From the NCBI GenBank assembly GCA_964187785.1, contig OZ076409.1:57600001-57664000 (forward strand): a DNA stretch of 64,000 bases. Reading direction: 5' to 3'. The DNA comes from Amphiscolops sp. MND2022. Taxonomy: Eukaryota. Of the stretch, positions 639-43,268 are shown piece by piece. The position numbers and the translations under genes were made by a program. Position 1 is the first letter of the stretch. Every line of letters begins with the position of its first letter. The notes beneath the pieces were generated by a model. The model made no database searches. It had not been told where the DNA came from and worked only from the letters and a program-made list of their open reading frames with translations.

Positions 639-1147
639 GTCTCGCCGGCGTGTTGTTTGATTTCCAAACGAAGTGCTCGTACTAATGTGTCCCTGGAAGG
701 TACTCGACATTCTCTGAAGTATCGTGAAATTCAAAAACTGGATCATACGTAGCTTGAGAAGTATAACAACACCACCAATCTGAACAGCCAACATTATTCA
801 GTCTCCGCTAGGAAATTTATTATGAACGTATTTATAAGCCATCTTTTCTTCCGACAGAGTAATTTTCTGACCTTTTGTTCATTCTTTGCTCTCCAATCTC
901 TTTCATCGATTTGTTGTATATCGTAATTTCGAATATGTTCCGGATTCGGTCTTTTTTGACGATTGGCAGTTGCGTTATCAGCTTTAGTAACGAAGATTTT
1001 TTAAGCAATCAACGACAACATATCTGTTTTCAAGAGAGCAGGCAAGGCCCGGCTGAAAGAAGAAATGATTGCGATTTAATTATCCTTAACGAAAAGAGTG
1101 AGATGTGTTTCTGTATTACAAAAAACAAACTCGCGTTAGGGTAGTGC

Positions 1148-1715
1148 TGTAAGGACTACTGTCCCTAGGTACTCTTAAGTCACCAGTAGACCGTGAGTCC
1201 TTTTTTGTAATTTTATTTCTAAACCCATTGTTAACTTCAGCGTTTTCCTGACTATTAGGGGACGAACTGGCCTCAGTGTCTCGATTCCCTGAGGGTGAAA
1301 TCGAACTCACTATAATTTGAATCTCTGGAATTACTCTCTCGGCTATTGCCGTGTTAATCGCCCTGTTTATCTGACTATGCATTAATGATATCATTGAATC
1401 CATTTCTTGTGAAAGTCTCATGTTGAATTCGCTAATGAAGGTTTCCAGTGTCTCTTGAACCCTGTCTTGCCTAGGAATTACATTTTCATGGACGTAGTGT
1501 CCAAATTCGTTTTCATGAGATTCATACCGTGCAGATTGGGGATGGGACTCAATGTCTTGATTGTTTTCCACATTCCCAATCATGTTTGAAAAATCGCGTT
1601 CAATAGGATTAGTGTTCTGATTCCCAATCATTACGTCCATATTTTCAAAGTCAGACATCATGTCCATTTCCCTTGACTTCCTAGCTTTCGCCTTTTGCTT
1701 TCTTGTTGAAGGCAT
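1148..1715 (-). pseudogene. gag: Gag N-terminal fragment (MPSTRKQKAKARKS...) truncated at the LTR edge
   Basis: Basic M(P/S)xTR start and acidic/coiled-coil composition resemble the LTR-encoded Gag start of the 4438-21015 element. The frame reaches the LTR terminus and then enters flanking DNA. Confidence 0.65.
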
Positions 1716-2737
1716 AAGAGACAATTGCAAGTGGTAAGAATTGATTATCTTTAGGCTTGCAAAACAAAACAAAATCATTTGATAGGCTGCAGAGAATATA
1801 TAGTTGTATCCCCGGTCCAGAAGTCCCTGGTATATATAGGACAGTTTGCATGACTATCATATATATAACCGTCATTTTCTAAAAATAGATAATCACTCGT
1901 CTAAAAATAGCATCACCTATTTATAGGTTACATGACGTAATGACCTATTGGTCACATCAAAGGCGTCACCTCGCCACACTCATCTATTTCAACTAGCGTC
2001 GTCGAGGGACAACTGCACTTTCATGATGATGGTAGCAGCACTGCATGTATCACTCATATAATTGTTACATGTTTTGAGCACTCCTGAGTGTATTTCAGGC
2101 ACGAAAATTTGGACATGGCCTTAAACGGCCTCTGAGCCAAAAAGGGGGGCGATCAATTGCAGCACCTTTATTTGTAAGAGTATATTTGTATTCATCATTA
2201 TTCTTCAAGTAAAGTCTATTACTACAACAATGAAAGCACCTGTTAATTTGGACTCAGTGTCTCATTGCCTTAACAAGTACATCAATATTTGAAAGTAAGC
2301 GGCGCGTGGCCATAATGTCCACTAATAATAGCACTGTATCAAAGTGCTCAGCTGAATGCTGAGGAATGATTGGTTGAAATAAATTTGGACTGCTTGTCCA
2401 CAGCGACAGGAGAGGAAACATTTTGAACGCGTTTCCTCTATCTGTACGCCTTGGTGTCTAATTTCAAACAACTCAGTAAACATTTACATATTGAATACAT
2501 TGTATCAATTACATGTTTTAACAGTAAAATATAATAAACTACATGAAGGTTATCCTTTCATAACCTCAAATTTTATTAGCATCATGGAAAACAATTACAA
2601 AACAAAATGATTTTCAGTTTTGTTGTCTGGACAGCATGTCCCTTTTCCCTAATCGAAGGGGATTGTGCCAGGGAGAGTATTGTAATGGTTGTAGGCAATG
2701 GAATACCAATTGTCATCGCAGGCGGCAGCCTGCGACA
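1148..2737 (-). mobile_element. Solo LTR (1590 bp) of a Gypsy-type family with gag start inside the LTR
   Basis: Begins TGTAAGG and ends TGCGACA. Flanked by AGTGC at 1143-1147 and 2738-2742 (5-bp TSD). TATA-like tract near 1859-1867 lies upstream of a gag-like ORF that runs off the LTR end. Confidence 0.75.
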
Positions 2738-4437: not shown

Positions 4438-6924
4438 TGTTACGACATGCTATCGAGTCGTTTTGAGTTGAACTTATTCTCACTGACTTTGTAGGGGTAT
4501 AAAAGTTTCTAGCCTCCTCTTCTGCTTCTTCCTCAGTATTCTCCCTAATGCTTCCCCTTGTTTCAGGTTTTAGGAGTTTCAACATCTCTCTCTGGGATTC
4601 GGCAAGAAGAGTCTTAATTTCCGATGTTATCTCATCTTTCAAGGATGCCCTTAAACTCTCCAAGAAACTATTTTCAATTCGAGGAGATTTTGGTCTGGAA
4701 GGACCCGACACGTCTACGTCCTGGTTTGAAGAACACGGATTTTCTACCACTATCGGTGAAATAAAACCTTCACTTACGTCCTTGTCGGCTTGTTGCTCAT
4801 TCCTTCTTTTCTGGCTTCTAGTTGTAGACATTTTGAAGAAAAGCTTTATCTTGAAGAATTGATTTTTCCAAAGATAATTTTCAACAAAGTTAGCTGAGAT
4901 TAGAGTTTAGCGAAATTGAGAATTCAACTGAATTAAACAATTGCAAAAGACTGAGTCCCTGAGTCAATGAAAATCATCCTATATATACCCTCCTAGCATC
5001 ATTTGATCACGATTAAAATCCTAATTTTCCTCGAACAATTAGTCATTTCCTGTATTTTCGATGAAAAAATCATTTTGTTCCCAATTTTACGTCGATAACT
5101 CGTCAATTTTTGAGACACGACAATTTCAATCTAGCATTAGTCATCAACCACGATCATATCATTTCAGCTCGGCGTCCTTTGCTTTCCTCCCAAGCAGGAA
5201 GTAGATATTACTTCAGTCTGTCAAACCGGAAATGATTCCCTGTTTTACTGCTTTGGTTCGTAGGAAAAATGACGCGGAGATGACGCTGACGTGAACAACT
5301 AATACCTGATTTTGAATTTTTACTTGAATAAAATACTATGACTAATGTTTTCAGCTTTGGAATTTCCAATGATGCTAGGAAAAGTAAGACAAAGCTATGG
5401 AATTAGCTTCAATTTTTGAGTTGAATTCTCACTTCAGATAAATAGTAATTAAACCAAATTAACGTAACATCAACGTTTACATTAGAAACCTAGAATGATT
5501 TGGCAACAGCTCTTGGCTTCTACAAAATTGGCTGAAAAGGTGGACGGAGCTATGACGTGTTAAAATCAAAGGTATTAACGAGTATGAATTTCATAATTGA
5601 ATTCATTCGTACTTGAGTTTAAACTTTGACGTCTTAACGCCGTTGAACCGAACTAATAAAAGTGAAACAGTCAGTTGCCAAAAGTGGTATGAAAATGATC
5701 ACAATGAGATGTATAAAATCAACAACAAGCACAGTTATATTGGGGGAGAAACACGAACATGAATATTACAAAAATATGACCTCATTATTAAAATATAATC
5801 TTTGCTGGTTCATAGCCCATAACTTTTCAGATACGTCAGATTGGCGTCAGGTTACACACAATCATATTTATGGTCTGCTTCAAACAGCATAAAATGTACA
5901 TTAATAGCATTCCCCCTTTGGAATAAACTGTGACTTTAATTATGAAGAACATGGAAATCCTAATCGGGTCATTTTACGATGTGATTCCAGAAGATTAGTA
6001 TTTTTATTGACGGGAACAGGACGTAAATTATCAAGTTTTATCCTTAATCTCGTAGAGTTTTAAAACATCTTTAAACGTTTCTCTTCCGTCAAATCCGACA
6101 TATTAATATTCATTTCACTGAATTGGATGGATTAAACCGACTATTTTGATGGATTTCGGACGTAACGTGGACGTACGTATTAAGATTGGCTATAGACCGC
6201 CGGCATTGGACGTAACGCTTACGTAAATTTGAAGTAAGAATTAATCCGCGCCGAGAAGGCAATACCGTGACGTCACTATGGCGGAAAATTGGAATGATTT
6301 TAAGTAGTGTCACTAATATAGGCGGTAAATTGGAATGGTTCTCTAGTGAGCGCGGACGGAACAGTGACGTCACATTATATACTTTCAAGTCTGCTTCTTA
6401 CCGACGCCTAATATACATGTATCCTTTATTTTGTTTACCTAGCGCAGTGCCGACGTCCTAATCCGCACTAATTGCTGTTCAAAGTGCAATTAAGCCGCCT
6501 TTCTTAGAAAAGGAGTGTATATTTCAGTGTGTCATCTCAATGTATTTTCTATTTTAGATCCAGATAATGTCCTTTTTCCAGTGGTGATTTTGGGTATGTT
6601 TTCGTTTAGATCGGTCTATGGTCTTTATTTCAAGACGTATACTTAATTAAGTTTTCAGGTGGCGAATGTTTCTATTTTGACGAGATGAAAACGTCCTGCC
6701 GGAAGTGTGTGAAATCATTTTGGCTCATTTTAGTTTCTGTTCTCATTTTCATTTAGACTTTGCGCAAGCTAGACGTACTTTTAGTCACAGTTTATTCTAA
6801 CATTAGTATGAAAGTTCAAGTCAGTGGCCAAAATACCTTTTCGAAAGTTTCGCTGTACAGCCGTGTCCTCGTCCGAACCCAATCCGTCTACATCCACAAT
6901 CCAGTCCGGGAGCGGACTGTGACA
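4438..6924 (-). repeat. 3' LTR (2487 bp)
   Basis: Matches 18529-21015 with ~11 substitutions counted by eye. Contains a copy of the first 131 gag codons (ORF 4433..4831). Confidence 0.97.
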
Positions 6925-7585
6925 GGGCCACTGTCATGGGTCGTATAACTCTCCCGGGTTGGCAAAACTGGAACGGCTGATATTGATTGTTTTCTTTGTC
7001 GTCTCCTGGAGTACGTTTCGTTGTCGCTGACCGTATTGGTGCTTGCTTTTCCAAGTCATTTAGTGGGCTAATCGGACGTGGAATTACTCTCTTCAGTGGG
7101 CCTGGGGGTGTCTCGAAAAGAGAAATATTGTCTTCTTCCCTGTGGATTTCCTCCAAATATTCGTTGATAATGCAGCTCGTGATCGATTGTGGGCTTGGTG
7201 CACGATGTCTTTCCACCACGAACACATCAGGGTTCGATTTATTGTCGTCCTCTTCCTGTTCATCCGGACTGTCTGGACTCTCCTTCATTGAGCTGTATTC
7301 GGACTTCGGCGAAGCGTTGTTAAGTTCTCCTGATTCTAGGGATTCGAAAGACGAACTCAGCCGCATCCTCTTGCAGTCCGCTTCTAACGAGTCCGCCGAG
7401 ACGTCGAAATACTCTTCTTCGTCAGCTACTGCTCTGGCGGATGAATTTGAAACATTTAGGATGACTCTAATATTGGGTAGTGACCCACTGGGAAGGGGAG
7501 TTGATGATCTCTCCGACGCCTCTGTTCCGTCTTCACTATCTGACGAGATGTCTATTAGCTCGTATATTTCCAGTAGATGGGTCAT
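6821..7585 (-). CDS. Accessory ORF, 254 aa from ATG 7585; acidic, Ser/Pro-rich, probably disordered; ends inside the 3' LTR
   Basis: Intact ORF (MTHLLEIYELIDISSDSEDG...) with CCAAT boxes upstream on the same strand (~7701-7708, ~7770-7776). No recognisable domain. Confidence 0.7.
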   Translation of the reverse strand: MTHLLEIYELIDISSDSEDGTEASERSSTPLPSGSLPNIRVILNVSNSSARAVADEEEYFDVSADSLEADCKRMRLSSSFESLESGELNNASPKSEYSSMKESPDSPDEQEEDDNKSNPDVFVVERHRAPSPQSITSCIINEYLEEIHREEDNISLFETPPGPLKRVIPRPISPLNDLEKQAPIRSATTKRTPGDDKENNQYQPFQFCQPGRVIRPMTVALSQSAPGLDCGCRRIGFGRGHGCTAKLSKRYFGH

Positions 7586-7645
7586 TTTCTTCAAGAAATT
7601 CTTTCTTTCTTTGCAGCTGACTTTTATCTTTTGATTGTTCCTCAA

Positions 7646-8078
7646 TGAATTCAGGATTAATTAGGATTAAGGAGAATATTGGGATAAATCCCTCTATTCT
7701 GATTGGCTATTCAATCATTTTAATCCTTTTCAATCCCCAGGTGTTGACGTTATTCCGGCGCCGCTTTTTATTGGCTGCAAATTAAATTAATCCGCTTAGC
7801 CAAGATTGTCAACGTTATGCTGACGTCATTTTCGTTAGCTTAACTAACTTTTGTTTTGTCACCGTTATGATGACGTCATTATAGGTTATAGGATTAATAA
7901 CCCAATAACCTTTTTGTCGACGTTATGCCGACGTCAATTTCGCTGATTTTTAATCAACTTTTTGGTACTGACGTTATGCCAGCGTCAATTTCGTTGGTGG
8001 CTTGCCAACTTTAAGTTTTGTCACTGTTATAATGACATCAATTTTGGTTGTTGTCTTCATCTTCGGGTTTGTTTTCAG
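7646..8078. promoter_or_regulatory. Putative bidirectional promoter with five spaced CGTTATGNNGACGTCA motifs and CCAAT boxes
   Basis: Motifs at 7813-7828, 7863-7878, 7921-7936, 7972-7987 and 8025-8040 (spacing 50-58 bp), between two divergent ORFs. Confidence 0.6.
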
Positions 8079-8096
8079 ATTCTGAGCTATTTGACG

Positions 8097-11000
8097 ATGG
8101 ATTCACGTCCCACTGTCTCTTCAGTTGATCCCGGGGCCCAGAGTGGTCACGAGACTCAATACGTGTTCTCGGAGGGAGACATGCGTCAGAGTGACGCGGA
8201 TGACATTCGACCTCGGGCTGTTGGTGAGTATTTCATTCCCTGATCCATTAAGCTTTTGTGAATAATACTACTACCAGATAGGCCTTTTCTGATTCATATT
8301 TTCACAGCTTAGATTTTCTTGACGCGTCGATGCTGGGAATGTACCTTTTCTTTTCTAGAGCCCAAGGTGATGACTACTCCTCTTGCTGGTGCTGAAGTGG
8401 GCGTTCCTCCTGCGACCATTTCTCCTGTGACGCCTTCTGCTGAGCTCGAGAGTGTTCCTTGTGGGTCGTCTGCTGCTGTCCCTGCTGGTGGAGAAACCCC
8501 TGTCGCGTCAGGTTCGAGGCCTGACGTCAATCTTACGGGCTTGCTCTCTGGTTCTCCTTGCGGAGGCGAGGTAGTATCCCCCACCGGAGAGAAAGATGAC
8601 GTCTTCGGGGCGGAATCTTCAGGAGCTGGGATCCTTGGGCAGACCTCCAGCTCACCTCAATTGACTCCTTTCCTGACTGGGTTCGGGCAAACGTTCGGTG
8701 GACTGACGCCTTCCGAATCCAGGAAAAGAGGTAAGGTTGACATATTTTGTTTGGTCTTGAGGTTTTTCCCTGTTTGATTGTTTGGTGATACATGTTGACG
8801 TTATAGTTGCGTCCACTGCTGCAGAAAGGGCTGGGACAGGCTCATCTGGAAAAAGGAAGCGTCAGGTGCGCGTGCAGACGGCGAATCTGCTTTTTGCGCA
8901 GCTTACTGTGAGCGGTAATAAAAATTTTTCAATCTGGGGTGTTGGGTAGGCTATTAGATAGGCTATTCGAATGTGACTTTGGTTTGTTTCGTAGAATCTG
9001 GAGATTGTGCCGCTCAAGGGATTTCTGGTGCTAGTGACTTGGACGTGGCCCGGGCGGAGCCTTCTGGAGTTGGTCCCGTACTAGCAAGTGAGTATACTTT
9101 GTCATGACTGTAGTCGTTATCTGCATCACGTTGAAGTGGGTTCTGTAGTGTACATCTAGGCATTTGTTGTTTGTGCTAGTTCTGTAGGTATAGTCTGGTT
9201 AGTGCTAATCCGTCGTTATGTCGTTTTGTAGGAATGCAAGATCTGGTGTCTCGGATGGAGAGCAGTTTGGAGGCGGTTGCTTTGCGTGAGACCCCCGTCA
9301 AGAAGTACAGCAGCCGTCATCATCTGCGAAAAGATATGGTGGGGGACCATCCCATCTTCAGTCTGTTTGTCAGTGGAGCCAGCAACGGGTCGGCCACTCA
9401 CTTCCACTGCATGATTTGCAAGCGGGATGTCTCCATGCAGTCACGCGGGTCAAGGGAGTTCGTCCGACACTACTCCGGCGATCGCCACTGGACTCGAGAT
9501 GTGGCCTACCGGGTTCAGCAAGGTCTGCCAGTGTTCGATCAGCTGATTAAGCCTCTCGAGCTGACGTCAGACCAGCGGGCCGAGTACCTGGGTCAAGATG
9601 TAGTGGAGAAAGATGAGGGATTCAGTTTCCCTGAGGACTTGCTGCCGTCTTGTACTCGGGTGGATTCAACGATTCCTCTGCTGACGATGGTAAACTGTGT
9701 GGCAGAGCTATGCAGGTGGGGTGGTAGCTACGTTTTGCTCCGCAAGCTGCGGGGCAATTTCCGTGCCACTCTGGGGCCTGACAATCCCCTATACAATCTT
9801 CACTGGAATCGTCCTGAGACACTGGTTAGTAATCTTCATAGAGATGAGTTGTGTTGTTTTTCCTCATCATGTGCCTGTTTCTTTTGTATGTGGACGTCTT
9901 GTGGTCGGCGTAGGTGGGTTTGTGCATCTGCTGAGTGAGTTGGTGCGTTTGTGTTTTAGTCGTTGATTTGTCGTGCTCTCTTTCCTCGGGTCCTGCGCTC
10001 CATCATCTCTCGCGTGACGGCCTTCAACTGCTACAGTGTGCGGTTTGAGGAGCATGCCGATGGCCAGTACTGCTTCGTTTCGACTTGGGAGGGCAATACT
10101 TTGCTGGACGTCTGCATCAATGTCGAGCCCTTGGGTCAGCGAGTGCCCCAGTCCGAACTGTCGTTACTGTCGCGCATCGTCACCAGTCTGTCCTCAGCTT
10201 CTCTCCATATCAGCATTCGTGGTGCCAGTCCATCCTGCCTGCGGGTAGTCAACGACGAACGCAGTGACGGGCATCGTTTGGTGTATGCTCGGGAATTCTC
10301 CTCTGATGTGTTCCTCCACTGCTATCGAGTTGCCCATCAAGAGATCTTCGGGATGTTAGAAGTCACCACCATGGTCGACTTCTTGATGGTGCGTCTTCGT
10401 GGGGCTTTGCAGGAGCCCTGGATGGAGGACCTTCCCGAACTTCGCCGTTGTGTGGTCGCTGGAAAGGTGACGTTCGCCGAACTGCGTGGTGTCGTGGATG
10501 AGCTGGTCTCCATTTGGGATACCGTCCGGGAGTACGTTCGGTACACTGGTCCCCGACACATCAAGAGCGAGGCTGACAAGGTGGGTATAGTTTTGTTTCA
10601 GGGTGCTGTTTTTGTATTCTTGCGGTGGGGTGTCGTCTCTCTGTGGGTTTGGCGAAATAGTCATCTTGTTGTTGCTATTTAGATGCGAGGCACAGACACG
10701 CTCGTCTACTCCGAGACGACAAACAAACTGCGACTGGGAATGCTGCTGCACGTTCTGGATCTTTGTAAGTTGTACTTTCCTGTGACTTTCTTTCGCTATT
10801 CTTGGTTTTTGGTTGTTTTTTTTGTTTTATTTTGTTGGCATAGTAGCTCGTTTGGTATGCTAGGTGGCTGATCGTCGTCGTCATCGGGTTGTCGTCTAGG
10901 TATCATAGTCTTGGTAATATGTGTACAGCCGTCTGTTGTGTTTAGATCATTGCACTTTCGTCAAACAAAAGGCCGGACGTAGTGACTACGCCTTTCATGC

Positions 11001-12264
11001 CTACAGTGAAGTGTGTCAGTTCGTGTACTGCTTGCTCATCCGCAGTCGCAAGGTGTCCAGTCTGCCTGCTCTCAATGATTGGGAGTCATATATGGAGCCC
11101 AGCAAGTTGCAAGCGTTCGAAAAAGTCAGTACTGACGATTTCTTGCAGAATTACGAGTTTGGGGCTGAACTACATCGTTCAAACACTGGTGAGGCGCGTG
11201 AGTTCCGCAATCGTTGTCGGGAATTTGTGGACCGGCTGGTGGACGTCATCTTGGATCAGCAGGTTGTGTCCTCGGATTTCCTCCAGGGGTTGTATTGCTT
11301 TTGCCCTGAGCTGCTCCTTGAGGGCGACGACCAGCATGTCTTTCAGCTGTTCTCTCGTCTGGTTCGCGTTCTTGAGCGATGTGGCTGTCTCTCCAGCAGT
11401 GATGCACAGTCGAGTCGTGAGGAGTTCGCCACATTCGTCGTCGATGCTAGGACGCGGCATCAGGAGTCAGAGCGAAGTGCGGAGCAGATCGAAGATGTTA
11501 CTGAGTATCTGCTTTCGGACTACAGTTTCATGTCACGGAGAAGCCTCGTCCGGGTACTGAAAGTGTGTTGCTTGGTAGTGGATCGCCCTCGCAGAAAGAT
11601 GCCTGACATTGAAATTGATCTTAAAGACTGTGCCGTTCCTGTTTCCGTCGTGACGTCGTCTCTGAGGGGCGTCCAAAGTCTTGTGTCTTCTCCCGGGTAC
11701 AAGCAGGGCGCTTTCTTCACTCAGGGAACTATGGAAAGTGTTCGCGATGCCATAGCCAGCAGTCGGAGTTTCATGTCTTGTGCCAGTTTTGACCCTTGGG
11801 AGAGTGTGTCATGTGGCGATCGTTCGGCCTTTGTGCGTCAATACTCTTCAGCCTTTGATGCTTATCTGAGCCGCAAGAAAAGTGATGCCACGAAACAGCT
11901 TCATAGTGCCAACCGTCAGCCGCGCCAAGTTCGTTTTTCGGAGTCTGGTGGTTCAGGCGGGTCAAGTGTCTCCAGTTCTCCTCGTGGTGGTGTGTTGCCT
12001 GCTACCTCATTTGCTGTTGCTTCTCCTGTGTCTGGTTCCGATGCTGGGACGTCAAGGCAACGTACTTATACTGCGGAGTCTTCCTTGGCTGCTATTCTTG
12101 GGCAGAAAAAAGAGCTGAAGCCCGTCAAGAAGGCGTGTGTTGGTAAGAAAGAAGCGGGAAATAAAGGCGCAGAGAAAGAGTCCTCTAAAGATCAGTCACA
12201 CGAGGGGCCAAAAAGTGCGAAGTCGATTGGAAGACGATTGAGTCCCAAGTCCAAGAGTCACTAA
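8097..12264 (+). CDS. Antisense spliced accessory gene, 1104 aa: low-complexity N-terminus, CxxC...H...H zinc finger, degenerate hAT-transposase-like body, basic C-terminal tail
   Basis: Exons 8097-8223, 8359-8730, 8807-8914, 8995-9087, 9232-9824, 9960-10580, 10683-10764, 10946-12264. All 7 introns are GT...AG, most with pyrimidine-rich acceptors, and phase-compatible (1,1,1,1,0,0,1). Total 3315 nt = 1105 codons with a single terminal stop. Zn finger: CMICKRDVSMQSRGSREFVRHYSGDRH. Confidence 0.85.
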
Positions 12265-12535
12265 GATGTGTAGTCGAGACTTGATACAACTGTTGTTGTT
12301 AAACTTTAGTAGTAGTCTTTTGTGCTTCTTTTATTGCAGCCTTTATTTATTTGATTGTAGTCGTTGCCTTTTGGCTATTTTTATTTTGCTGGATTTTAAA
12401 ATTAACTGATAGTGATTGACTCCCCAGCAAAATAGTAGAAAAGAAATTGGGGTCAAAAAAAAATCAAGAAAAAGAGGTCGTAGTATGCCAGTAATTAAAG
12501 TCGTCAGGTCGGTTCGATCTGGACACTTGATAGTG

Positions 12536-12550
12536 CTCTTTTCCCTTTCT
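12536..12550 (-). other. Polypurine tract AGAAAGGGAAAAGAG at the pol stop (candidate internal PPT)
   Basis: 15 consecutive purines on the element's sense strand, 5.6 kb from the 3' LTR. Confidence 0.4.
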
Positions 12551-15500
12551 AGTGAGTCGTAGTGATAGCGTCAAGTCTTCTAAAGTCAGGATTAGTATTG
12601 GGTTTACGATTAGGTCGTAGATTGTATTTCGCTATTTTGCTTGGATTATATCCAACTGTTGTAGGCGGCGATTTTGGGGGAATAGGTGGGTCTTCAATGG
12701 GTGGGGGGCGTCGTATATATGGATTATCCCCCACGTCTGTAGTAAGATTTGAAAAGTCCGGAGATGGCGGCGCTTTGTCGTCCGTAGTTTCAGGTTCCTT
12801 GTCCAGTATTTGTTGCGTCGCCGTTTCGTCCTGCGTGTTCGCTACCTCTTGTGTGACTGGTTGTTGATGATTGTTTTCGTTTTCTCGCGACTCGTGCTCG
12901 TCGATCTGTTTCCCGAAATCCATTTCCCATGAGACTGCGTACCACTCATTGTGTGAAATTTTGACATCTGGATCGGGAAGGTAATTGTCGGCTCGTACTG
13001 TGACGTCAGGCAAGCGTTGTTCTGGCACGTAAGGTCGTATGCGAATTCTGTGTAGTGTTTGTGTATATCTTGTGCCAAGTTTGCGTATTGTGTAGTTATT
13101 ATTGGAAAGCACTTTGATCACTATGTACGGGCCAGTCCATATGCAGTCTTGGAACGCAAACTTCGTCGACTGGTTGTCGGCTTTCGGATTGAGTATATAA
13201 CAATAATCGTTGATCTTCAGTGGAGCTGCAGACGCTTTGCGGTCGTAATATTTTTTATATTTGAGGTAGGATAGCATTATATTGTCCTTCGCTGTCGCTC
13301 GTACCTCGTCTATTTGTTTTTTTAATTGCTCTGCTATGTCCGAGTTGGGCGTTGTTTTCCACTTTGGCTTGATCCCCAATTTTAGGTCGAGGACATTGTA
13401 GGGTATTCGTCCGTGGAATAATGTAGATGGTTCACAGCCCAGAGTCTCGTGGTATGTTGTATTGTAGTTCATTACAGCTATTTGGACATACTTGTGCCAC
13501 ATTGAACGTCGTTCACCCGTCGAAATTTTTAGTGCGGTTTTGATTGACGCGTGTGTTCTTTCTAAATTTCCGATCGTCTGTGCATGTTTTGTAGACGCAT
13601 GGCTGATTTGAATCTCGAGTATTTGGGCTATTTCTGTGACGACTTCTGATCGAAATTGTGAGCCCTTGTCTGATAGGATTAGTGTTGGCAAGTATGCATG
13701 TCTTGTCATAACGTCGACAATGCATCGTCCGATTGTTTTCGCTGTGGCATTCTGTGTTGTATATGCAAATAGGTAACGTGAAAATACGTCGATCATCGTA
13801 ACGATGTTCTGGTATCCTGCAGAGCTTGGCAAATTTGGTAGTATGTCAATTTCAAGAATGTCCTCCGGACCAAGGACGTGTTCCGTATTGTTGATCATTT
13901 TCGGTCTGATTTGGCTGTTGTTGATTCGTTTGTATTTGATGCAGTCTTCGCATTGCATTACCCACTGTCTGATTCTTTTTGCTAGGCCGGGGTAGTAGTA
14001 CTTTGATCGGCATTCTTGAATCATTTTTGTAATCCCCGGGTGTTTTCCCATTTGTCCATGTATTGCCTTCAAGAGTTCTGTAACCAAGTGTTCGGGAATT
14101 AATATTTGGTGGTGGGTAACTTGTCCACATTCGCCGTAGTACTTTCGCATTAATACTCCATCTTTGACAATTAGTCTGTTTTCGTGGACTAGAAGGCGTT
14201 TGGCTGTCGGATCAGTTTGTAATAGGTGTTTGTCATAATCTTCAGAAATCAGTTTCTTTTTGATTGCTTTGAAAACTAGGTTTGAATCTTGTTCGACTCT
14301 GATGCGAGCATCCTCTTTTATTGCTCCAAAGGTATAAGATGCTTTATTTCTTGGAATTGGGGTGGTTTCTTTGATGGATAGTTTAATTTTGGACGTCTCC
14401 TCGTCGCGCGCATTTTGTCTAGCTTGTTCCTTCTGCAATAGGATTTCTTCTTCTGTTTCAATTGTTTCATCCGGAAGGAAGAAAAGCTGTTCCTCATCCG
14501 CGACGTCCGTAGATTGGAGATTCACTTGGATGGGCCTGATTGTAATGTCCTCTCTTATTTTCAATTCAACTCGTTCTTTGGGGGTAAGTTCAATGCGTGA
14601 TAGAAAATCAGCTGCAGTGTTTTGCGTACCAGCGACGTGCATTATGTGGAAGTTGAATTGTAGCACATAGTCACACGCGTTCCACAGCGTAGGCGGTATG
14701 GCTTTTGTTTGAAAGAAGCGCGTGACTGACCTGTTATCGGTCATTACGAGTGTTGGTAGCGTCGCTTCCCACAATATATGGCTGTATTCTAGAAATGCAT
14801 GGTAAATTGCTAGGAATTCTTTGCAGTAAATAGACATTTTTAGTTGAGCTGGGGAAAATACTTTCGATCCGAATGCGACCGGCGCAAATGTCTTCTTTTT
14901 TGAATTGAGTTTTTTGTCGTTGTTTTCCTCAATCATTAGTGCGTAGCCGGAGGCTCGGAAACTGGCGTCCGTCATCAGGGCGTACTGTCGTCCTGTGATT
15001 GGTTGTTTGAGTGCCAAACCGCAAGTTTGCGCCAGTGCTGCGTTGATAGCTTTGTAATGGTCAAGTAATTCTTCTGTGATTTTGATTTGTTTATCTGCTT
15101 TCAACAATTCATAGAATCCGAGTAATTTTTCAGATAATCGCGGGATGTAATTGCGATAATAATTGACAAAACCAATGTATCTTTGTACCTGCTTTTTTGA
15201 CTTTGGAAATCGTACATTTGCCAGAAATTTTTGTATTTTATGGTCTTGGGGGGCAATTCCTTGTGGAGTGATTGTTCTTCCGAGAAATTCAACCTCAGTC
15301 ACCCCGATATGGCATTTTTCTATGGTTAGTTTAAGCCCCGCTTGTCTGATGCATTCGAAAACGGCTTTGATGTTACGTATCAGTTGCGTCACTGAATTGG
15401 CTGCGATCCCGATATCATCCACATATTGTGCGCACTGGTCGGTTTGATCACTTTGTCTAAGTATTCTCTCATGAAACTTGAAAATGCCGACAGAGCCCTG

Positions 15501-17480
15501 CTCAGTCCTTGTGCTAAGCGTCTGTAGGCAAACGTCCTGCTTGCGAAGTTAAACGCCAGCATTTCAATGGATCTTTGATCTGCCATTTGTAAGCAGTGGT
15601 ATGCTTGAGAGCAGTCTAATTTGCAAAATAGCTTTTTACCAGCTAGGTGTTGAGTCGCATCTGACAAGGTGCTAACTGGATGGTTATTGTTGATGTAGTC
15701 ATCTGAGATTAGTGCGTTTATTTTTCGCAGGTCGACAAGTAGACGCAATTTGCCATTTGGTTTTCTCTGTGCGAAAATTGGGCTTGCATACTTTGAAAAT
15801 GGTAGGGTCGTTATTATGCCGTACCTGTGCATTAGCGCCAATTCGACTGTTAGGTCTTCTTTCAAATTGATTGGTACCGGCAAATTTTGCGTGTAAATCG
15901 GACGCTCGTCTTTCGGAGTTAATTTGACTTTGAAGCTATTGTTGATTCCAATGTCAAGGCGATGACGCGCAAAAATGTCGTTGTATTCGATTATTGTTTG
16001 TTCAAGTTGCTTCCTGTCATTGCCTTCGATTTGGGAGCCTTCCCACTGGAACATGTCAAGGAATTTTTGTCTTGATTTTGGGTCTTTGGTTGGATCTAAG
16101 TTTTCCTTTTGGATGAGTTCACGGATTTCCTTCAAGATCCGACGTTGGATTGGCGTATGTTCTTCTTCGTTCCCTGGATTCTCGGGTGTGGGGAACCAGA
16201 GGTTTTCATCGCTTTGTTCATGTTCATTTGATTTCATAAGCTCGTTGATGTACATGTGTGTGTCATCAGGATCTTCTAACAATTTGAGTGCGGCGGCGTC
16301 AACTGGTCGTATTTGTTTCGTGTCCTCAGGTTTGAGGATTTGTAGTTCTGCCAGCTTTGTATGATTCTTTATTGTATGTGGGAAATCCGTTAGGTTGGCG
16401 ATTCTGATGTTGAGCCTTTTGTTATGGGCTGTCGCCAGAGCTGGTGCAACAATGATTGTTGCTGTTTCATCAAATTGTGGTAGTGGTTGTACCGCACCAG
16501 TGACGTCATGCATGTTTGTGGTTATGACTATTGCGTTTACTGTTGTTGTCTGTTGAGGCGGCAGTGTCTGATGTCCTTCTGCCATTATTTGAAGCGGTTT
16601 TGGGTTGCATTTTTTCATTTCGTCTGTCATGGCTAACGTCATTTCGACGTGTGGGAAATTGATGGTTCCGTTGGCAGTGTCAATTACTGCTTGATGATTT
16701 CTCATGAAGTTCAATCCTATGATAGGGAATGACGTTTTCGATAGGATGACGAAGGTATCCGTGAAGGTATATGTTCCAATATTGAACTGGATGTCCGCTG
16801 TGGCTATTGGTTGTTCTAGTTGTGCGTTTGCGCATTCGATCTTGAAGGGGGGTTGAGGGTTATTTTTTTATGACACAACTATCACTGTTCATTTTGATTG
16901 CGTTGTAATCTGACCAGGACATGGCATTGATGAACGCGCCTGAGTCGACAAGTCCATCCATTGTTATCTCGCCAAATTCGAGTGGCAAGTACAGCATTCT
17001 CCTTCTATTCTTGAGGACTATGGTGGAATGGAGGGGTATGTATGTTTCTGCATCTTTTTCAGTAACATACTCTTTGATAGAGTTAAGAGATGTGGGGAAA
17101 TCCTCTGGGAAGATAGGTACTTGGGTGAGGCCGTGGGTATCTTCCTTTGTCTGTGTTGACGATGGTTGGTCGTCGAGGGCGTTTTCGGTTTGTTCTGTTT
17201 GGGTTATGGTGGATTGTGTTGTATTGGTGAGGGGTGGCTGGATGAGAAGGTTTGGGTGTTGTTTGTGGTCGTCTCCATGATCCTCATCTTGTGTCAGTTC
17301 CTTTTCGGTTTGTATGAGGGGTCTTCGTATGGAAGCGAGTGCCTGACGTCTCAGCCAGTCCTCTGTTGGAGTTCCGTCACATTCTATAGTTGTTTCGTTG
17401 GTGTATGTAGTAGGGGGATCATTTGGTGAATACGCCCTCGCGTCTACTGTTTCCCCGAAGCGCAGGCGCGGCGTATCTAG
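12549..17480 (-). pseudogene. pol: Gypsy pol (protease-RT-RNase H-integrase) with two single-base frame breaks
   Basis: The -1 frame is open from the slippery site through protease LVDSGA (~16935-16952). +1 insertion/TAA at 16860-16862. RT motifs RLLVDLRKIN and LDCSQAYH. 1-bp deletion near 15442, just before YVDD. RNase H TDASF. Integrase HHCC, D-D-E and GPY motifs. Confidence 0.93.
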
Positions 17481-17486
17481 TTTTTT
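17430..17486 (-). other. -1 programmed ribosomal frameshift signal (A AAA AAC plus GC-rich stem-loop)
   Basis: AAAAAAC at 17486-17480 directly before the gag TAG. Followed by ATACGCC...GGCGTAT stem (17476-17430). The -1 frame is the pol frame. Confidence 0.85.
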
Positions 17487-18922
17487 GATTCAATGACAGA
17501 GTTAGCTGTCGTTGGTTGGACGGGAACGTCCCTTTTTGATTCCGGGTTATTGTGACGCTTAGGTCGTGGATCGTTGGCAGAGTTGGCTCCGTTCCAACAA
17601 TCTTCCGTTTTGTGAGGTTTGCCGCATGTGTCGCATTTAAGCGACTTGCCTGCACTAGAGTTGGTTTGACCATTGTTCTTCCTGATCTGCATCCATTTAT
17701 CTCTCTTCATTTTCCTACATTCCGCTTTGTAGTGTCCAAATTTGTTGCAGTAGAAGCAATATCCTTTTTTGACATTTTGCGTCGTGCTGTCGACTTGTTT
17801 GGGTTCAGTTTTTGTTGGGGCCGGTTCTACTTTATTTAGTGGTACCAGTGTTACTTCATCTGGCGCCCCAAGGCCGTTAAGCCTCATTTCTCTTTCCAAG
17901 TGTAGCACAATGTCATTATATGGCTTGTCTTCGAGATACGCCCTGTTTAGTATCTTTTTTATATGATCTGGCATTTTTGCGTATATTGCTTTGTCAATGA
18001 ATTGTTGGGCTTCAGATCCGAAGGCTTCTTTGGCCGTTTTTTGAAGTACGCCTAGAAATTCATGGAGTTTCTGGTTCGAGGGGTCAAATCTGAGCGCATC
18101 CCATTCGCATCTTGCTTTAGTTGCTTTAGCCGCAGACAGGTAGTCCCCGAAACGTCGTTTGAATATCGTCATTATTTCGTCAAGAAAATCTTTTTTCGCG
18201 TCTTCTATATTGCAAAACGCCTGGAGGGCGTCTCCTCTGAGTAGCGAGTGGAAATAGTTAATTTTTTGTATTTCCGTGAGATGGGGATACATTTTTATGT
18301 TGTTGCGGAAAAGATCTTCGAATAATTCAAATTTTTCCGATTTCCCGTCGAACGTTGGGAGAGATGCCGTTAGTGCCTTTGGCATGGGCAGCGTTGTGCT
18401 GTCACCTTTTTCCGATGTAAACAGGGTCCTTGCCACAACTGGACGTTCTTTTGACAATGGCTGACTTTGGGACCGGGCCTTCGTTCTTTTTGGCTGGTTA
18501 GTGGAGTCGGTTAAAACTCCTGTCACCATGTTACGACATGCTATCGAGTCGTTTTGAGTTGAACTTATTCTCACTGACTTTGTAGGGGTATAAAAGTTTC
18601 TAGTCTCCTCTTCTGCTTCTTCCTCAGTATTCTCCCTAATGCTTCCCCTTGTTTCAGGTTTTAGGAGTTTCAACATCTCTCTCTGGGATTCGGCAAGAAG
18701 AGTCTTAATTTCCGATGTTATCTCATCTTTCAAGGATGCCCTTAAACTCTCCAAGAAACTATTTTCAATTCGAGGAGATTTTGGTCTGGAAGGACCCGAC
18801 ACGTCTACGTCCTGGTTTGAAGAACACGGATTTTCTACCACTATCGGTGAAATAAAACCTTCACTTACGTCCTTGTCGCCTTGTTGCTCATTCCTTCTTT
18901 TCTGGCTTCTAGTTGTAGACAT
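17477..18922 (-). CDS. gag: Gag, 481 aa, starting inside the 5' LTR
   Basis: Intact ORF with capsid-like LPTFDGKSEKFELFEDLF, knuckle CFYCNKFGHYKAEC and a second CDTCGKPHKTEDC. Confidence 0.93.
   Translation of the reverse strand: MSTTRSQKRRNEQQGDKDVSEGFISPIVVENPCSSNQDVDVSGPSRPKSPRIENSFLESLRASLKDEITSEIKTLLAESQREMLKLLKPETRGSIRENTEEEAEEETRNFYTPTKSVRISSTQNDSIACRNMVTGVLTDSTNQPKRTKARSQSQPLSKERPVVARTLFTSEKGDSTTLPMPKALTASLPTFDGKSEKFELFEDLFRNNIKMYPHLTEIQKINYFHSLLRGDALQAFCNIEDAKKDFLDEIMTIFKRRFGDYLSAAKATKARCEWDALRFDPSNQKLHEFLGVLQKTAKEAFGSEAQQFIDKAIYAKMPDHIKKILNRAYLEDKPYNDIVLHLEREMRLNGLGAPDEVTLVPLNKVEPAPTKTEPKQVDSTTQNVKKGYCFYCNKFGHYKAECRKMKRDKWMQIRKNNGQTNSSAGKSLKCDTCGKPHKTEDCWNGANSANDPRPKRHNNPESKRDVPVQPTTANSVIESKN
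18511..18528 (-). other. Primer-binding site TGGTGACAGGAGT..., inside the gag coding sequence
   Basis: TGG directly follows the LTR CA end. Resembles the complement of tRNA-Leu 3' ends (TGGTGTCAGGAGT); the tRNA identity is from memory and unverified. Confidence 0.8.
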
Positions 18923-21015
18923 TTTGAAGAAAAGCATTATCTTGAAGAATTGATTTTTCCAAAGATAATTTTCAACAAAGTTAGCTGAGATTAGAGTTTA
19001 GCGAAATTGAGAATTCAACTGAATTAAACAATTGCAAAAGACTGAGTCCCTGAGTCAATGAAAATCATCCTATATATACCCTCCTAGCATCATTTGATCA
19101 CGATTAAAATCCTAATTTTCCTCGAACAATTAGTCATTTCCTGTATTTTCGATGAAAAAATCATTTTGTTCCCAATTTTACGTCGATAACTCGTCAATTT
19201 TTGAGACACGACAATTTCAATCTAGCATTAGTCATCAACCACGATCATATCATTTCAGCTCGGCGTCCTTTGCTTTCCTCCCAAGCAGGAAGTAGATATT
19301 ACTTCAGTCTGTCAAACCGGAAATGATTCCCTGTTTTACTGCTTTGGTTCGTAGGAAAAATGACGCGGAGATGACGCTGACGTGAACAACTAATACCTGA
19401 TTTTGAATTTTTACTTGAATAAAATACTATGACTAATGTTTTCAGCTTTGGAATTTCCAATGATGCTAGGAAAAGTAAGACAAAGCTATGGAATTAGCTT
19501 CAATTTTTGAGTTGAATTCCCACTTCAGATAAATAGTAATTAAACCAAATTAACGTAACATCAACGTTTACATTAGAAACCTAGAATGATTTGGCAACAG
19601 CTCTTGGCTTCTACAAAATTGGCTGGAAAGGTGGACGGAGCTATGACGTGTTAAAATCAAAGGTATTAACGAGTATGAATTTCATAATTGAATTCATTCG
19701 TACTTGAGTTTAAACTTTGACGTCTTAACGCCGTTGAACCGAACTAATAAAAGTGAAACAGTCAGTTGCCAAAAGTGGTATGAAAATGATCACAATGAGA
19801 TGTATAAAATCAACAACAAGCACAGTTATATTGGGGGAGAAACACGAACATGAATATTACAAAAATATGACCTCATTATTAAAATATAATCTTTGCTGGT
19901 TCATAGCCCATAACTTTTCAGATACGTCAGATTGGCGTCAGGTTACACACAATCATATTTATGGTCTGCTTCAAACAGCATAAAATGTACATTAATAGCA
20001 TTCCCCCCTTGGAATAAACTGTGACTTTAATTATGAAGAACATGGAAATCCTAATCGGGTCATTTTACGATGTGATTCCAGAAGATTAGTATTTTTATTG
20101 ACGGGAACAGGACGTAAATTATCAAGTTTTATCCTTAACCTCGTAGAGTTTTAAAACATCTTTAAACGTTTCTCTTCCGTCAAATCCGACATATTAATAT
20201 TCATTTCACTGAATTGGATGGATTAAACCGACTATTTTGATGGATTTCGGACGTAACGTGGACGTACGTATTAAGATTGGCTATAGACCGCCGGCATTGG
20301 ACGTAACGCGGACGTAAATTTGAAGTAAGAATTAATCCGCGCCGAGAAGGCAATACCGTGACGTCACTATGGCGGAAAATTGGAATGATTTTAAGTAGTG
20401 TCACTAATATAGGCGGTAAATTGGAATGGTTCTCTAGTGAGCGCGGACGGAACAGTGACGTCACATTATATACTTTCAAGTCTGCTTCTTACCGACGCCT
20501 AATATACATGTATCCTTTATTTTGTTTACCTAGCGCAGTGCCGACGTCCTAATCCGCACTAATTGCTGTTCAAAGTGCAATTAAGCCGCCTTTCTTAGAA
20601 AAGGAGTGTATATTTCAGTGTGTCATCTCAATGTATTTTCTATTTTAGATCCAGATAATGTCCTTTTTCCAGTGGTGATTTTGGGTATGTTTTCGTTTAG
20701 ATCGGTCTATGGTCTTTATTTCAAGACGTATACTTAATTAAGTTTTCAGGTGGCGAATGTTTCTATTTTGACGAGATGAAAACGTCCTGCCGGAAGTGTG
20801 TGAAATCATTTTGGCTCATTTTAGTTTCTGTTCTCATTTTCATTTAGACTTTGCGCAAGCTAGACGTACTTTTAGTCACAGTTTATTCTAACATTAGTAT
20901 GAAAGTTCAAGTCAGTAGCCAAAATACCTTTTCGAAAGTTTCGCTGTACAGCCGTGTCCTCGTCCGAACCCAATCCGTCTACATCCACAATCCAGTCCGG
21001 GAGCGGACTGCGACA
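18529..21015 (-). repeat. 5' LTR (2487 bp)
   Basis: Direct repeat of 4438-6924. TATA-like TATATATAG near 19070-19078, ~150 bp upstream of the gag ATG. Confidence 0.97.
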
Positions 21016-26573: not shown

Positions 26574-29500
26574 TGTCAGAACGTGTTAACGTCTCAGAAC
26601 TTAGGACGTCTTGGTGGTTCCCTTAATTACTGGTTGAAATTTTCTCAATAAGGGTTCTCATAATACTAGTCAACTCTCCAATCTGCCTGATCATATCTAC
26701 GAATCTCTGCTCTATTCTGAGCCTTTCGTGGTCTCTCTCCATTGACCTCATTGTCTCGTCGTCATTCTCACCAAAGTAACTTTCACGATAATGGTCGGCT
26801 ACACTGTCATTATCATCATTATCAGAAAGTCTGTCGTCTTCGGATTTCCCTATTCTGTTTTCTCTGAGGATTTGCGATCAGGTGTTCACCATCTTTTTCA
26901 AATTAATAGGTTAGTTTTGGTAATTTTTGAATTAAAATAGAATGGAAAGAATGTTAACGTTATTGATACGTAAGTAAGGTAGTAAGTATATTTCAATATC
27001 GTGAAAATGCGTATGGTTCCAGCGGTAGCACAATTTCAACTGGTGATTTTCTACTTCGTTTTAGCACCCTCAAGCTTTCTAGTCATGCGTACATATTACC
27101 TAATTGATTGCGTCCACTTTTCTGGTGTTTCTCATTGATGCGGCAATTCACACTTCAAGGTGCGTTAGGCGACTGGTTACTTCAGTCGTCGCTAATTTCC
27201 TTCGGAGCACTTTCGAACCTGTTATTACATCACTAACCTTCATATTTACACCTCCGATTACTTCACGATTAAAGTGGTGGTGGTAACTATGGGTACAAAA
27301 ATATAGATCAATACACTAATTGTTGGTGACAACTAATTACTTTAATTCTTGGTTTGAATCGATCCACTACATGGTTGGAGATTACAACTACTGAATGAAA
27401 ATCAATTGGTCGTTACTGCTTGATAAACGAGCAATGACTTTCATGAATTACTAATCGATGCACTGTTTGAATAAATGTTAACTGCAAGTGATGATTTTAG
27501 ATAAAATGACGATTGCATAGGCCGGTCGTTCTTTTCTGTAAAAATATTTTATGAGTTTTTAGTTCGTGTTGAGCTTCAATTGCAGCCTCTGACGACTGGA
27601 ACGTGTCGTGGTTAATTTCATCATGTAGTTCGGCATGACACCCCGCATCTTTGAGTGAAAAGAGTTAAGTATCCGATTAGGAAATCGAGAAGAGGAGTGG
27701 TTCAGATTTAGCTTTGTTAGTTTGCGCATGTGCCTGTTTCGCTTTTGACGACTTGAGGCTGCAGTCGTTGGTTGGCGTTATCTATCTCGTTTAATACACT
27801 TCGGTAAATGAATAGCATCGGGGTGGTGACGACTCGTGTTAACAGTCGTGGGCGTTGTTGCACTATTCAGGTCGGAAATAGGAACCAATACTGCAAGCAA
27901 CGGAAAGAGAGAGAGAGAGTGAATGGTTACGTCACTGAACAGTTAGTGTAGAAGTATTGCGAGTAAGTAGTTCAACGGTGGCAATTGTTTGCCATGTCAT
28001 CCTGTCATGCGCGTCCGAAGAGGTAGTCGGAATAGAGTAAATAGTGATCGGAAGTGACCGCGGCAGTCGGCATTCCGTTGGAAGTTGTACTGTTATTAAT
28101 AGTCGTGTTTCTTTTTCACTCACTCAATATCGCTCTGCTGCTAGTTAGTTTGAATTTTGTTGTTGTTGATCGATTTCTGCAATTATTAGAACTGTTCCTT
28201 CTTCCCATGTTCGACAATCTTCGCTGATCGATTTGTAAGGATATCCACGGGTAGTGTGGTTGTTTGAGTTTTCACTGCTGGAAACATTTTATATGGGTTT
28301 TTCGAATTTAACTGTTTTCTGCGATGACGAGCGAGTGCTGTCCACGTACTGTTGTATTGTCCATTTGAGAAAGGAATGATTCAGCTGTCGACCTAACGGC
28401 TGATATCAGCAATTTGTCTTTGAAATTTTGGGTCGTACACCTTCACTTTTTTGAGATTACATAGTTGATCAGGCCACAAAATCACGTGAACTGAACGATG
28501 ATCCATTCTAGTCGTCGTCTGTTGTTTGTCAGTTAAAGTAGTATCCTCTGTTAGCATAACGGTTTATGTTCAACGTCGGCGACGGTCTTACTGACCCTGA
28601 GCTTGTCTCCACTGTTTCGCAAGCCGAGAGTTGTTTGTTGGAGGTCGAGATGTCGTCAGGGTCAAATTAATCAAAGATGGGTCAGTTAGCTGCGAACGTC
28701 CCTAGTGCCCCAAAGTGTTGTGAATTAGTGGCTCGGGTGTTTGCTGCAGGACGTCCTGGGCTTGAGTGTCTGTTGGACGTTGCGCTATCAGAAGAATTCA
28801 GTAAGTTCAGCGCTATTTTTTGTTGTGTTTCTTATTGCTAGGGCAGCGGTTGGGTTAAGTGAAGACTCCCTTCTTCTGGGTGTTTTGAGCTTCTTGGTGT
28901 AACGTTAATTTTTAGAGCAGGATGTTGTGGAATCCATGTAGTTCTTTTTCTGTGTTTATACCCGGGGTTTTGTATCTGTAGGGTGTGCCGTAGGGTGGTC
29001 ACCTTTCCAGTTCTGCAGTGAGTGGTTCATATGTATCGCAAGTCTCCATTTTGTCGTTTGCAGGTGAAGTTGATGTCTCAGCATTGGCAGAGTTTCTCCA
29101 AATATATCCTCGCTGTCAGGAAGCACGAATGACTGGAGACACAACTGAGGTGTTCGGGCGTCTAGGCGAAGTGCTTTCGCCTCGAACCGGTAAGTAATGT
29201 AGCTTATATCCTTACTATCCAGCAAAGTAAATGTGGTACAACTGAAGTCTAGGGTCGTTGCTTTTTCCTTAGGGGGGTTGGCGCTCAGGTAGTATTAATT
29301 GCTGAACATAATTGATTAGTTCTTGTAGGTGAATCGATTGTCTCGGCAGACCCTTCATCTCACTGGTCGTCCGTAGAAGCTAGATTAGAACACGGTGTGC
29401 ATGGATGGGTGAAAGCGGGGATTGATTCAACTATGGGCCAGTTAGGAACCGTGGGGGCGATGGCTAGGGATGACTTCTTGCAAAAGATGAGAGAGGTGTT

Positions 29501-35980: not shown

Positions 35981-36478
35981 ATGCCGTTCTCGTTAAAAGC
36001 AAGTCGTGGATTCTTTTACCGGCCTCACCCAAATAATAAAAATCATTTTACGTGTATCAAGTGCAATAAACATTACATACAAAAGGAAGGATCTGGCTAC
36101 CAAACTTACAACCACGTCCATGGGACTCACAAAGGTTTGGAAAAAATAATGGCTGATGGTATTTCAACTCTAGAACACTTACGCGATCCGAAAACATTAA
36201 AAATATATGGGTGGTTGGATCAAATTGTTAGCTGCGTATTTCCATTTTCTTATGTTGATAATCTAATTGTACAAAAATATAACATATTACCACCGATTAC
36301 CCATCAATCGCTTGTAATATTTTTAAATGGACTTACAAAAGTTGTCGGAGAAGATTTTAAAGACGAATTGCTTGACAAATTTGGAAAATTCATTGATGGA
36401 TGGTCTGATTTTGGAACTTCAACTCCTTATAATGCCATATTTGCTGATACCCAAATAAACAAGGTAATGATTTGGTAA
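35981..36478 (+). pseudogene. Truncated hAT-family transposase (BED-like finger, IYGWL...PFSYVD, first catalytic DGWS)
   Basis: FTCIKC...H...H, PFSYVD and KFGKFIDGWS motifs. Flanked by CAATAATTGT subterminal repeat arrays (~35540-35700 and ~36730-36845). Confidence 0.75.
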
Positions 36479-36849: not shown

Positions 36850-37170
36850 GTTTCAAGGATAAAAGGTGTCCGATAGTTTCCATTGACGAGTTACGTTCTG
36901 TTGACAAAAAACAAAAAAAATTTCACAGAAATACGTATACAAACTGCCTGTTTTACCTTTCGAACTACATTGAATCTTGGTACACTCCCAGACAGGGTTG
37001 ATAAATATTGAATATTTATCAACCCTGTCTGGGAGTGTACCAAGATTCAATGTAGTTCGAAAGGTAAAACAGGCAGTTTGTATACGTATTTCTGTGAAAA
37101 TTTTTTTGTTTTTTGTCAACAGAACGTAACTCGTCAATGGAAACTATCGGACACCTTTTATCCTTGAAAC
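36850..37170. repeat. 321-bp near-perfect palindrome (160-bp arms, 1-nt spacer)
   Basis: Centre at 37010; one mismatch found between the arms. Confidence 0.95.
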
Positions 37171-37204
37171 GCTTGCTAAACGACAATCACGTTAACCGAG
37201 AACA

Positions 37205-37400
37205 ACAAACAGATTGTGCTCATGGAGCAGCAACTCAGAATTTGCGTAATAAAGTTATAACTTTTATACGCAAATTCTGAGTCGCTGCTCCATGAGCACA
37301 AGCTGTTTGTATTTGGGCGCTGAATTAACGCGACGAACTCGTCCCATGCATATATGCAAGGGAGGACTTCGTCGCGTTAATTCAGCGCCCAATTACAAAC
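37205..37400. repeat. Two abutting imperfect palindromes (37205-37310 and 37305-37400)
   Basis: Centres AAGTTATAACTT (37257/37258) and TGCATATATGCA (37352/37353). Confidence 0.9.
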
Positions 37401-43119: not shown

Positions 43120-43268
43120 AACAGTAGTCTTTAGTCAAATCCTCAAAGAATCTATGTCATCCTGATCAATGCACACTTGTAGGAACGCTTTTTCAATATC
43201 CGCTAACACTGTAACATGGAATAACCGAAACCGCAAGAGAATCTCGAACAATGAAACCAGCAAATTCG

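Follow-up and report, generated by a model that had tools for sequence, protein, structure and literature searches.

The window analysed here, a 64,000-nucleotide stretch of the Amphiscolops sp. MND2022 genome (contig OZ076409.1), contains a complete Ty3/gypsy LTR retrotransposon of 16.6 kb (4438..21015), with gag-pol on the minus strand and a 5-bp target site duplication (TSD), CTAAT. The 3' LTR (4438..6924, minus strand; 2487 bp) is 99.56% identical to the 5' LTR (18529..21015, minus strand), inside which the gag frame starts, and, judged from this LTR pair, the insertion is recent and the element young. The gag, protease, reverse transcriptase, RNase H and integrase regions (12552..18997, minus strand) follow the gypsy order (PR-RT-RH-IN), and the LTR termini (TG..CA) and the TSD are likewise those of a Ty3/gypsy element. 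The pol region of the window copy is broken across several frames, near 16,865 and at 15,400-15,550. No chromodomain was detected by Pfam on the integrase among the window ORFs.

The element carries a further gene, hereafter the cargo gene (8097..12264, plus strand), which lies between the integrase and the 3' LTR and is antisense to gag-pol. According to the splice model, it consists of eight exons (8097-8223, 8359-8730, 8807-8914, 8995-9087, 9232-9824, 9960-10580, 10683-10764 and 10946-12264, all plus strand) separated by GT-AG introns, and encodes a 1104-aa product without internal stops. Exons 1-4 (8097..9087, plus strand) encode the N-terminal 233 residues, which are rich in Ser, Gly, Pro, Ala and Thr (53%), include the basic cluster GKRKR and are likely to be disordered; these exons are less certain than exons 5-8, being of low complexity and supported by clade A copies only (see below). 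The remainder of the protein includes a BED-like zinc finger (9408..9488, plus strand; C293-x2-C296-x16-H313-x5-H319), a helical region (FRNRCREF...FCPELL...EEF; 11203..11560, plus strand) and a basic, low-complexity C-terminal tail (11878..12264, plus strand; 24 Lys or Arg in 128 residues) with putative nuclear localisation signals. The original prediction had placed a catalytically dead hAT transposase at 9300..11750. A single gene indeed holds all of the peptides quoted in its support, on the plus strand and in the order given (the finger FHCMICK...HYSGDRH, 9402-9488; YSVRFEE, 10032-10052; ISIRGASP, 10209-10232; LGMLLHVLDL, 10734-10763; FRNRCREF, from 11203; LQGLYCFCP, 11281-11307), although the gene extends beyond that interval on both sides.

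The cargo gene belongs to a large family. Searches of the genome (1.07 Gb in 1929 contigs; its BEL/Pao and hAT5-like elements point to an invertebrate animal) with exon 8 and exon 6 detected at least 131, 150 and 150 copies, at 57-100% identity; these numbers are lower bounds, as 131 of 7725, 150 of 6670 and 150 of 5406 candidates were scored. In total, the family comprises three deep clades (A, B and C), which share 15-30% identity. Clade B was found via a degenerate relative in the window itself (29731-32000), with at least 150 copies scored of 1513 candidates; it shows 15-20% identity to clade A and is collinear with it (hhalign 98.3%, E 1.4e-14, 604 columns). When exon 8 was compared by HMMER with 1.84 billion representatives, 630 clusters were found at E 0.001; the 10 of these that were looked up all derive from ENA assemblies. 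One of the 10, P0132, led to clade C, whose core is encoded by one uninterrupted ORF (870-918 aa).

The position of the gene was examined at 52 loci, a non-random set picked by hand from the match lists for spread. The cargo gene was antisense to a gypsy pol at 20 of 20 (clade A), 18 of 20 (clade B) and 12 of 12 (clade C) loci, i.e., 50 of 52 in total, and was never found on the same strand as pol; in the two exceptions (L091 and L106) the stretch fetched contained less than 150 aa of pol. In this arrangement, 50 of the 52 loci resemble Retand-type elements, whose accessory ORF is likewise antisense and located after pol, before the 3' LTR. Integrase and cargo trees of 24 elements recovered the same three clades, with discord inside the clades (the cargo tree was computed in quick mode). 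Within clade A the cargo gene evolves faster than pol (48-83% versus 82-96% identity), and it has been swapped as a module: the pol regions of loci L030 and L031 are 95% alike, their cargo genes only ∼50%. One intron occupies the same alignment column in clades A and B, and the positions of another differ by only a few columns, while the clade C core (L111-L122) is intron-free and groups with clade A when the donor transposase described below serves as root (subject to a long-branch warning), implying that the core introns were lost in clade C. The window also contains a pol-less element (27464-32340) with 178-bp LTR-like repeats (92% alike), which holds only the degenerate clade B cargo gene and suggests that non-autonomous carriers of the cargo gene alone exist.

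Several observations confirm, at the sequence level, that the cargo gene is a real, intact, family-wide gene under strong purifying selection. The splice sites recur in copies down to ∼55% protein identity, and those of exons 5-8 were found again in 40 fetched clade A copies, many of which carry stops or frameshifts. At 12 of 12 loci, the intron-free clade C proteins form a single alignment with the spliced window protein, starting at its residue ∼257 and reaching 972 or further (28-30% identity; E values of 1e-72 to 1e-87), which confirms the exon model. The dN/dS ratio for exons 5, 6 and 8 was 0.05-0.10 in 9 of 17 pairs, dS being saturated in the other eight. The recurring splice sites, the low dN/dS and the one-piece alignment together argue against a chance open frame.

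A second additional ORF of ∼254 aa from its ATG (6824..7585, minus strand) diverges from the cargo gene and encodes an acidic, Ser-rich protein. Its conserved N-terminus, ELIDISS(D/S)E, presumably resembles a SUMO-interacting motif. Across clade A copies the ORF shows 41-98% identity, and it has been swapped independently. The 436-bp spacer between the two genes (7661..8096) is rich in TGACGT/ACGTCA words, at 16 per kb versus at most 0.9 per kb in the flanks (palindromes counted twice); all 17 clade A copies analysed contain 4-9 of them per 450 bp, and the cluster is confined to this clade. The spacer is likely to be an internal, bidirectional promoter, and the cluster may be a host CREB/ATF site. 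No repeated binding motif was found across the element as a whole.

In terms of origin, the best counterpart of the cargo protein is a DDE transposase of a DNA transposon family in the same genome (the donor-type family; L167, L195-L207), the copies of which are ∼99% alike and bounded by terminal inverted repeats (TIRs) starting with CAGGG. Among 15 two-ended copies, all only 0.76-1.94 kb long, 10 have exact 5-bp TSDs, four have exact 6-bp TSDs and one has a 7-bp TSD with a mismatch, so that the same TIRs give TSDs of both 5 and 6 bp. Such TSDs are described as the mark of hAT5 and hAT6 elements in PMC12730594 and PMC9004415. The donor was thus classed as a probable hAT5/hAT6-like element, by its TIRs, TSD length and motif order rather than by a profile match; comparison with the Ac, Tip100, CGGBP-like and DUF659 hATs of this genome by hhalign gave at most 2.1%, i.e., no match. 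A cargo profile searched against 503 ORFs of donor-type loci gave a best E of 1.3e-12, for the C-terminal half, and finger matches near 5e-4, while 1577 ORFs of 50 other hAT loci gave a best E of 0.035. By hhalign, the cargo and donor profiles were matched at 87.9% (E 3e-6) from the finger, which corresponds to the donor finger, to the first catalytic Asp, and at 92.1% (E 6e-7) in the second half, through the Glu motif; reversed and six shuffled controls reached at most 0.33%. The strongest match lies in the helical region.

The similarity is uneven. Other cargo-donor alignments by hhalign scored 42% and 73%, clade A alone scored 27% and 8.5%, and the middle of the core, from the second Asp to the CxxH motif, aligned in global mode only. 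In the reciprocal direction, an HMM of the C-terminal half of the donor picked up 13 of the 47 cargo proteins at E<0.01 (reversed, 0 of 47), an HMM of the N-terminal half detected none of the 47, and the window protein itself was found by neither. Taken together, these comparisons support remote homology between the cargo gene and the DDE transposase of a hAT5/hAT6-like, TIR-bearing element of the same genome. The transposase origin originally predicted is therefore supported, with the refinement that the relative, a TIR-borne DDE transposase, is not a canonical Ac, hobo or Tip100 hAT. Candidate donors among the Ac/hobo, Tip100, DUF659 and CGGBP-like hATs of the same genome were rejected, as neither HMM nor hhalign gave a match.

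General databases added little. At curated cut-offs, Pfam gave no match for the window ORFs, 88 alignment members or 19 database homologues; zf-BED appeared at E 0.064, in only 3 of 26 sequences, and neither cargo nor donor matched hATC (PF05699). A genome search with PF14291 found no match anywhere and was uninformative. Sequence searches of the PDB with the cargo or donor profiles returned nothing below E 0.1, and word-based protein searches for relatives of greater length found none; in one of them, the matches listed (120 of 148) were all family members from ENA assemblies. The ESM Atlas search with P0132 had a best score of 0.84, and the named matches were mostly hAT-related (8 of the best 10 in one clan), a result which we treat as a lead only. 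Two single-exon structure models, the helical region being the best-predicted part of its model, gave no Foldseek match at E 0.001 (Hermes, 4d1q, ranked 18th with the exon 6 model, E 1.9), and VIA searches returned only helical bundles for exon 6 and nothing in a second run. Of the two kinds of similarity to hAT transposases that the original prediction had suggested looking for, the profile similarity was thus found, to the donor transposase, and the single-exon models showed no significant structural one.

The loss of catalytic residues was analysed in 47 homologues (12 from clade A, 7 from B and 28 from C). The zinc ligands C293, C296, H313 and H319 are kept in 47, 46, 46 and 47 of them, respectively. 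By comparison, E461 (10047..10049, plus strand), in the column of the first catalytic Asp of the donor (FDE), is Asp in none of the 47 and Glu in five; R518 (10218..10220, plus strand), assigned by motif register to the second Asp (MDGP), is Asp in none and Glu in nine; and D886 (11605..11607, plus strand), in the column of the catalytic Glu (ESGFS), is Glu in three and Asp in seven. The latter two sites were read from hhalign and motif registers, since MAFFT misplaced both. The registers proposed originally proved to be right (YSVRFEE corresponds to FTLSFDE and ISIRGASP to ISMDGPN), as did the replacement of the catalytic Asp residues. The C/DxxH and RW motifs of hAT transposases have also been lost: Cys and His are absent from the CxxH columns in all 47 homologues, and the RW column (T602-F603; 10470..10475, plus strand) contains no Arg or Trp in any of them. 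The window copy is acidic at two of the three DDE sites (E461 and D886), neither of which is conserved. In clade B, six of seven rows have Asp or Glu two columns from the second Asp site, where the register is unsure; no acidic column near the three sites reaches 85%, and the three clades share no triad. An intact DDE triad with flanking TIRs, named in the original prediction as the finding that would speak against it, was looked for and neither is present: with two mismatches allowed, no donor-type TIR occurs in 7600-12600, where the only inverted repeat is one 11-nt low-complexity pair. From the missing triad, the lost motifs and the absent TIRs, it follows that the cargo gene cannot be a mobile hAT, and DDE-type catalysis by its product is very unlikely.

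The position, selection and kept finger suggest that the cargo protein serves the element, with DNA as its probable target. We tentatively propose that this relative of a hAT5/hAT6-like DDE transposase, devoid of the catalytic residues, is kept by the gypsy lineage as a nuclear finger protein, which binds element DNA in trans and sustains transcription against silencing. In this scenario, a DNA transposon would have inserted in reverse orientation into an ancestral gypsy element, behind its pol and ahead of its 3' LTR, and would then have lost its TIRs and activity, yet been retained. Its introns could have persisted because the RNA copied by reverse transcriptase is of the opposite sense to the gene; clade C would have lost its core introns later. 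The finger would read the DNA of the element's own regulatory region, while the putative dead RNase H/insertion scaffold may allow the protein to oligomerise and to contact chromatin partners, like the hAT-derived host proteins ZBED1 and CGGBP1, and the product would thereby keep the element transcribed despite host silencing. An activator or anti-silencer is favoured, with somewhat less than even confidence, because the carriers are highly amplified and young, and because the cargo gene outpaces pol in sequence change and is traded between elements as a unit; such changes are as expected for a protein in conflict with its host. Precedents are VANC and ZBED1, an activator that SUMOylates Mi2-alpha and thereby displaces it (PMC7471704). 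Demethylation of DNA in the manner of VANC appears unlikely, since CpG is undepleted in the window (observed/expected 0.78-0.97 in the flanks).

Other roles are conceivable. Transposase scaffolds bind target DNA, and the protein could accordingly tether integrase to chromatin or target DNA and so direct new insertions to places that are safe or open. The constant association of cargo with pol, the agreement of cargo and integrase clades, and the lack of a Pfam-detectable chromodomain on the integrase would all suit such a tether; however, the exchange of cargo between near-identical integrases (L030/L031) sits poorly with a tight protein interface, and a product of a separate antisense mRNA would need to meet the intasome in trans. 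We consider this role unlikely. Slightly less probable again is a repressor that binds the LTR as a copy-number brake and limits harm to the host, which the same DNA-binding anatomy would suit, for which there is reported precedent in hAT-derived host factors such as ZBED6, and to which convergent antisense transcription could add damping. The carriers, however, rank with the most highly amplified families encountered, each search scoring at least 131-150 copies, and are still inserting, to judge from LTRs 99.56% alike, and fast change with module swaps fits conflict better than a brake.

A new or residual active site, or action on the RNA or particle of the element rather than on chromatin, is less probable still than a brake. 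Near-invariant acidic columns do exist outside the DDE sites (e.g., alignment columns 452, 458, 500, 569 and 577), as do the acidic residues close to the second Asp site in six of the seven clade B rows, but the former sit in predicted helices and not at the strand ends that form an RNase H site, CxxH and RW are lost in 47 of 47, and no triad is common to the three clades. Nested insertions are common in repeat-rich genomes, and one degenerate cargo copy resides in the pol-less LTR element of the window; a passenger or still-mobile nested transposon without a role for the retrotransposon is nevertheless highly improbable, being already contradicted by the absence of TIRs near the gene and of a catalytic triad, by the fixed site at 50 of 52 loci and by strong purifying selection.

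The preferred interpretation, an anti-silencing protein of transposase origin, can be compared with several known systems. Relative to the hAT5/hAT6 transposases (PMC12730594, PMC9004415), the cargo protein shows the same succession of parts, from the zinc finger and helical linker through putative RNase H-type strands and a putative helical insertion to the C-terminal helices, in addition to its profile similarity to an element with 5-6-bp TSDs in the same genome. In contrast, it lacks TIRs and a TSD of its own, the DDE triad, CxxH and RW, it moves only within an LTR retrotransposon, and it has gained low-complexity tails, with introns in two clades. Dead hAT transposases are known as host genes. 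Like the domesticated ZBED1/DREF, ZBED6, CGGBP1 (from hAT19) and DAYSLEEPER, the cargo protein is transposase-derived, has kept its finger and is likely to be regulatory; unlike these, it would have been domesticated by a class I mobile element rather than a host chromosome, exists in hundreds of copies and comes from a different hAT branch, and Pfam revealed no match to the ZBED1, ZBED6, CGGBP1 or DAYSLEEPER families.

The plant gypsy elements Retand, Grande and RIRE2 are reported to carry accessory ORFs in antisense orientation in the interval from pol to the 3' LTR (PMC11963269, which describes the origin of their product, TRP28 (PF04195), as unresolved). A fungal example behind pol is brtn of Botrytis (10.1101/2021.04.13.439636). 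The position, orientation, family-wide retention and proposed role as a nuclear DNA-binding regulator are shared with TRP28 and brtn, while the cargo protein, unlike TRP28, has a traceable donor type with TIRs and a whole transposase-length core, and is unrelated in sequence (no Pfam match to PF04195 or the PMD domain). PMC5418596 and PMC13547354 describe, respectively, antisense PMD genes behind pol in gypsy elements and VANC, the anti-silencing protein encoded by VANDAL. These fast-evolving, element-encoded accessory chromatin factors provide the functional model for our interpretation, although they differ in fold and origin and act in methylated plant genomes, whereas CpG is not depleted in the window. 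Capture of other ORFs is described for bdelloid elements (PMC5408684). In the openly accessible full-text literature searched, including PMC3597677 and PMC8721813, no LTR retrotransposon with a domesticated hAT-type transposase was found. The architecture is known, while the cargo itself is unreported in that literature and traceable in origin.

To our knowledge, neither source nor function has been assigned to most accessory genes of LTR retrotransposons. The cargo gene leads back to one particular type of DNA transposon that resides in the same genome, and the combination of lost catalysis and a kept finger points to a testable function. It is possible, at somewhat below an even chance, that an old gypsy lineage domesticated an entire class II transposase, turned it into a pseudo-enzyme and now employs it for sequence-specific anti-silencing or targeting; hundreds to thousands of copies in this genome would then depend on it. 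This would extend transposase domestication from host genomes to mobile elements and would provide a candidate counter-defence protein outside plants. The three clades and their module swaps represent natural variants for mapping protein-to-motif specificity. As no library recognises them, such genes risk being annotated as orphan host genes.

Other repeats are distributed across the window. By eye, a fragment at 35939-36475 (plus strand) resembles a finger-bearing DDE transposase and an LTR remnant at 1119-1853 (minus strand) resembles a gag N-terminus, both without a Pfam family match. A BEL/Pao element (37450-45670; 246-bp LTRs, 99.6% alike) is immediately preceded by three back-to-back palindromes (36850-37400; arms of 160, 53 and 48 nt) and has a 1.6-kb segment in its interior present twice (38463-40062 and 41520-43119), so that the gag region recurs; this duplication is either real or an assembly artefact. 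A 4.6-kb tandem duplication, 96% alike, occupies 46363-55658.
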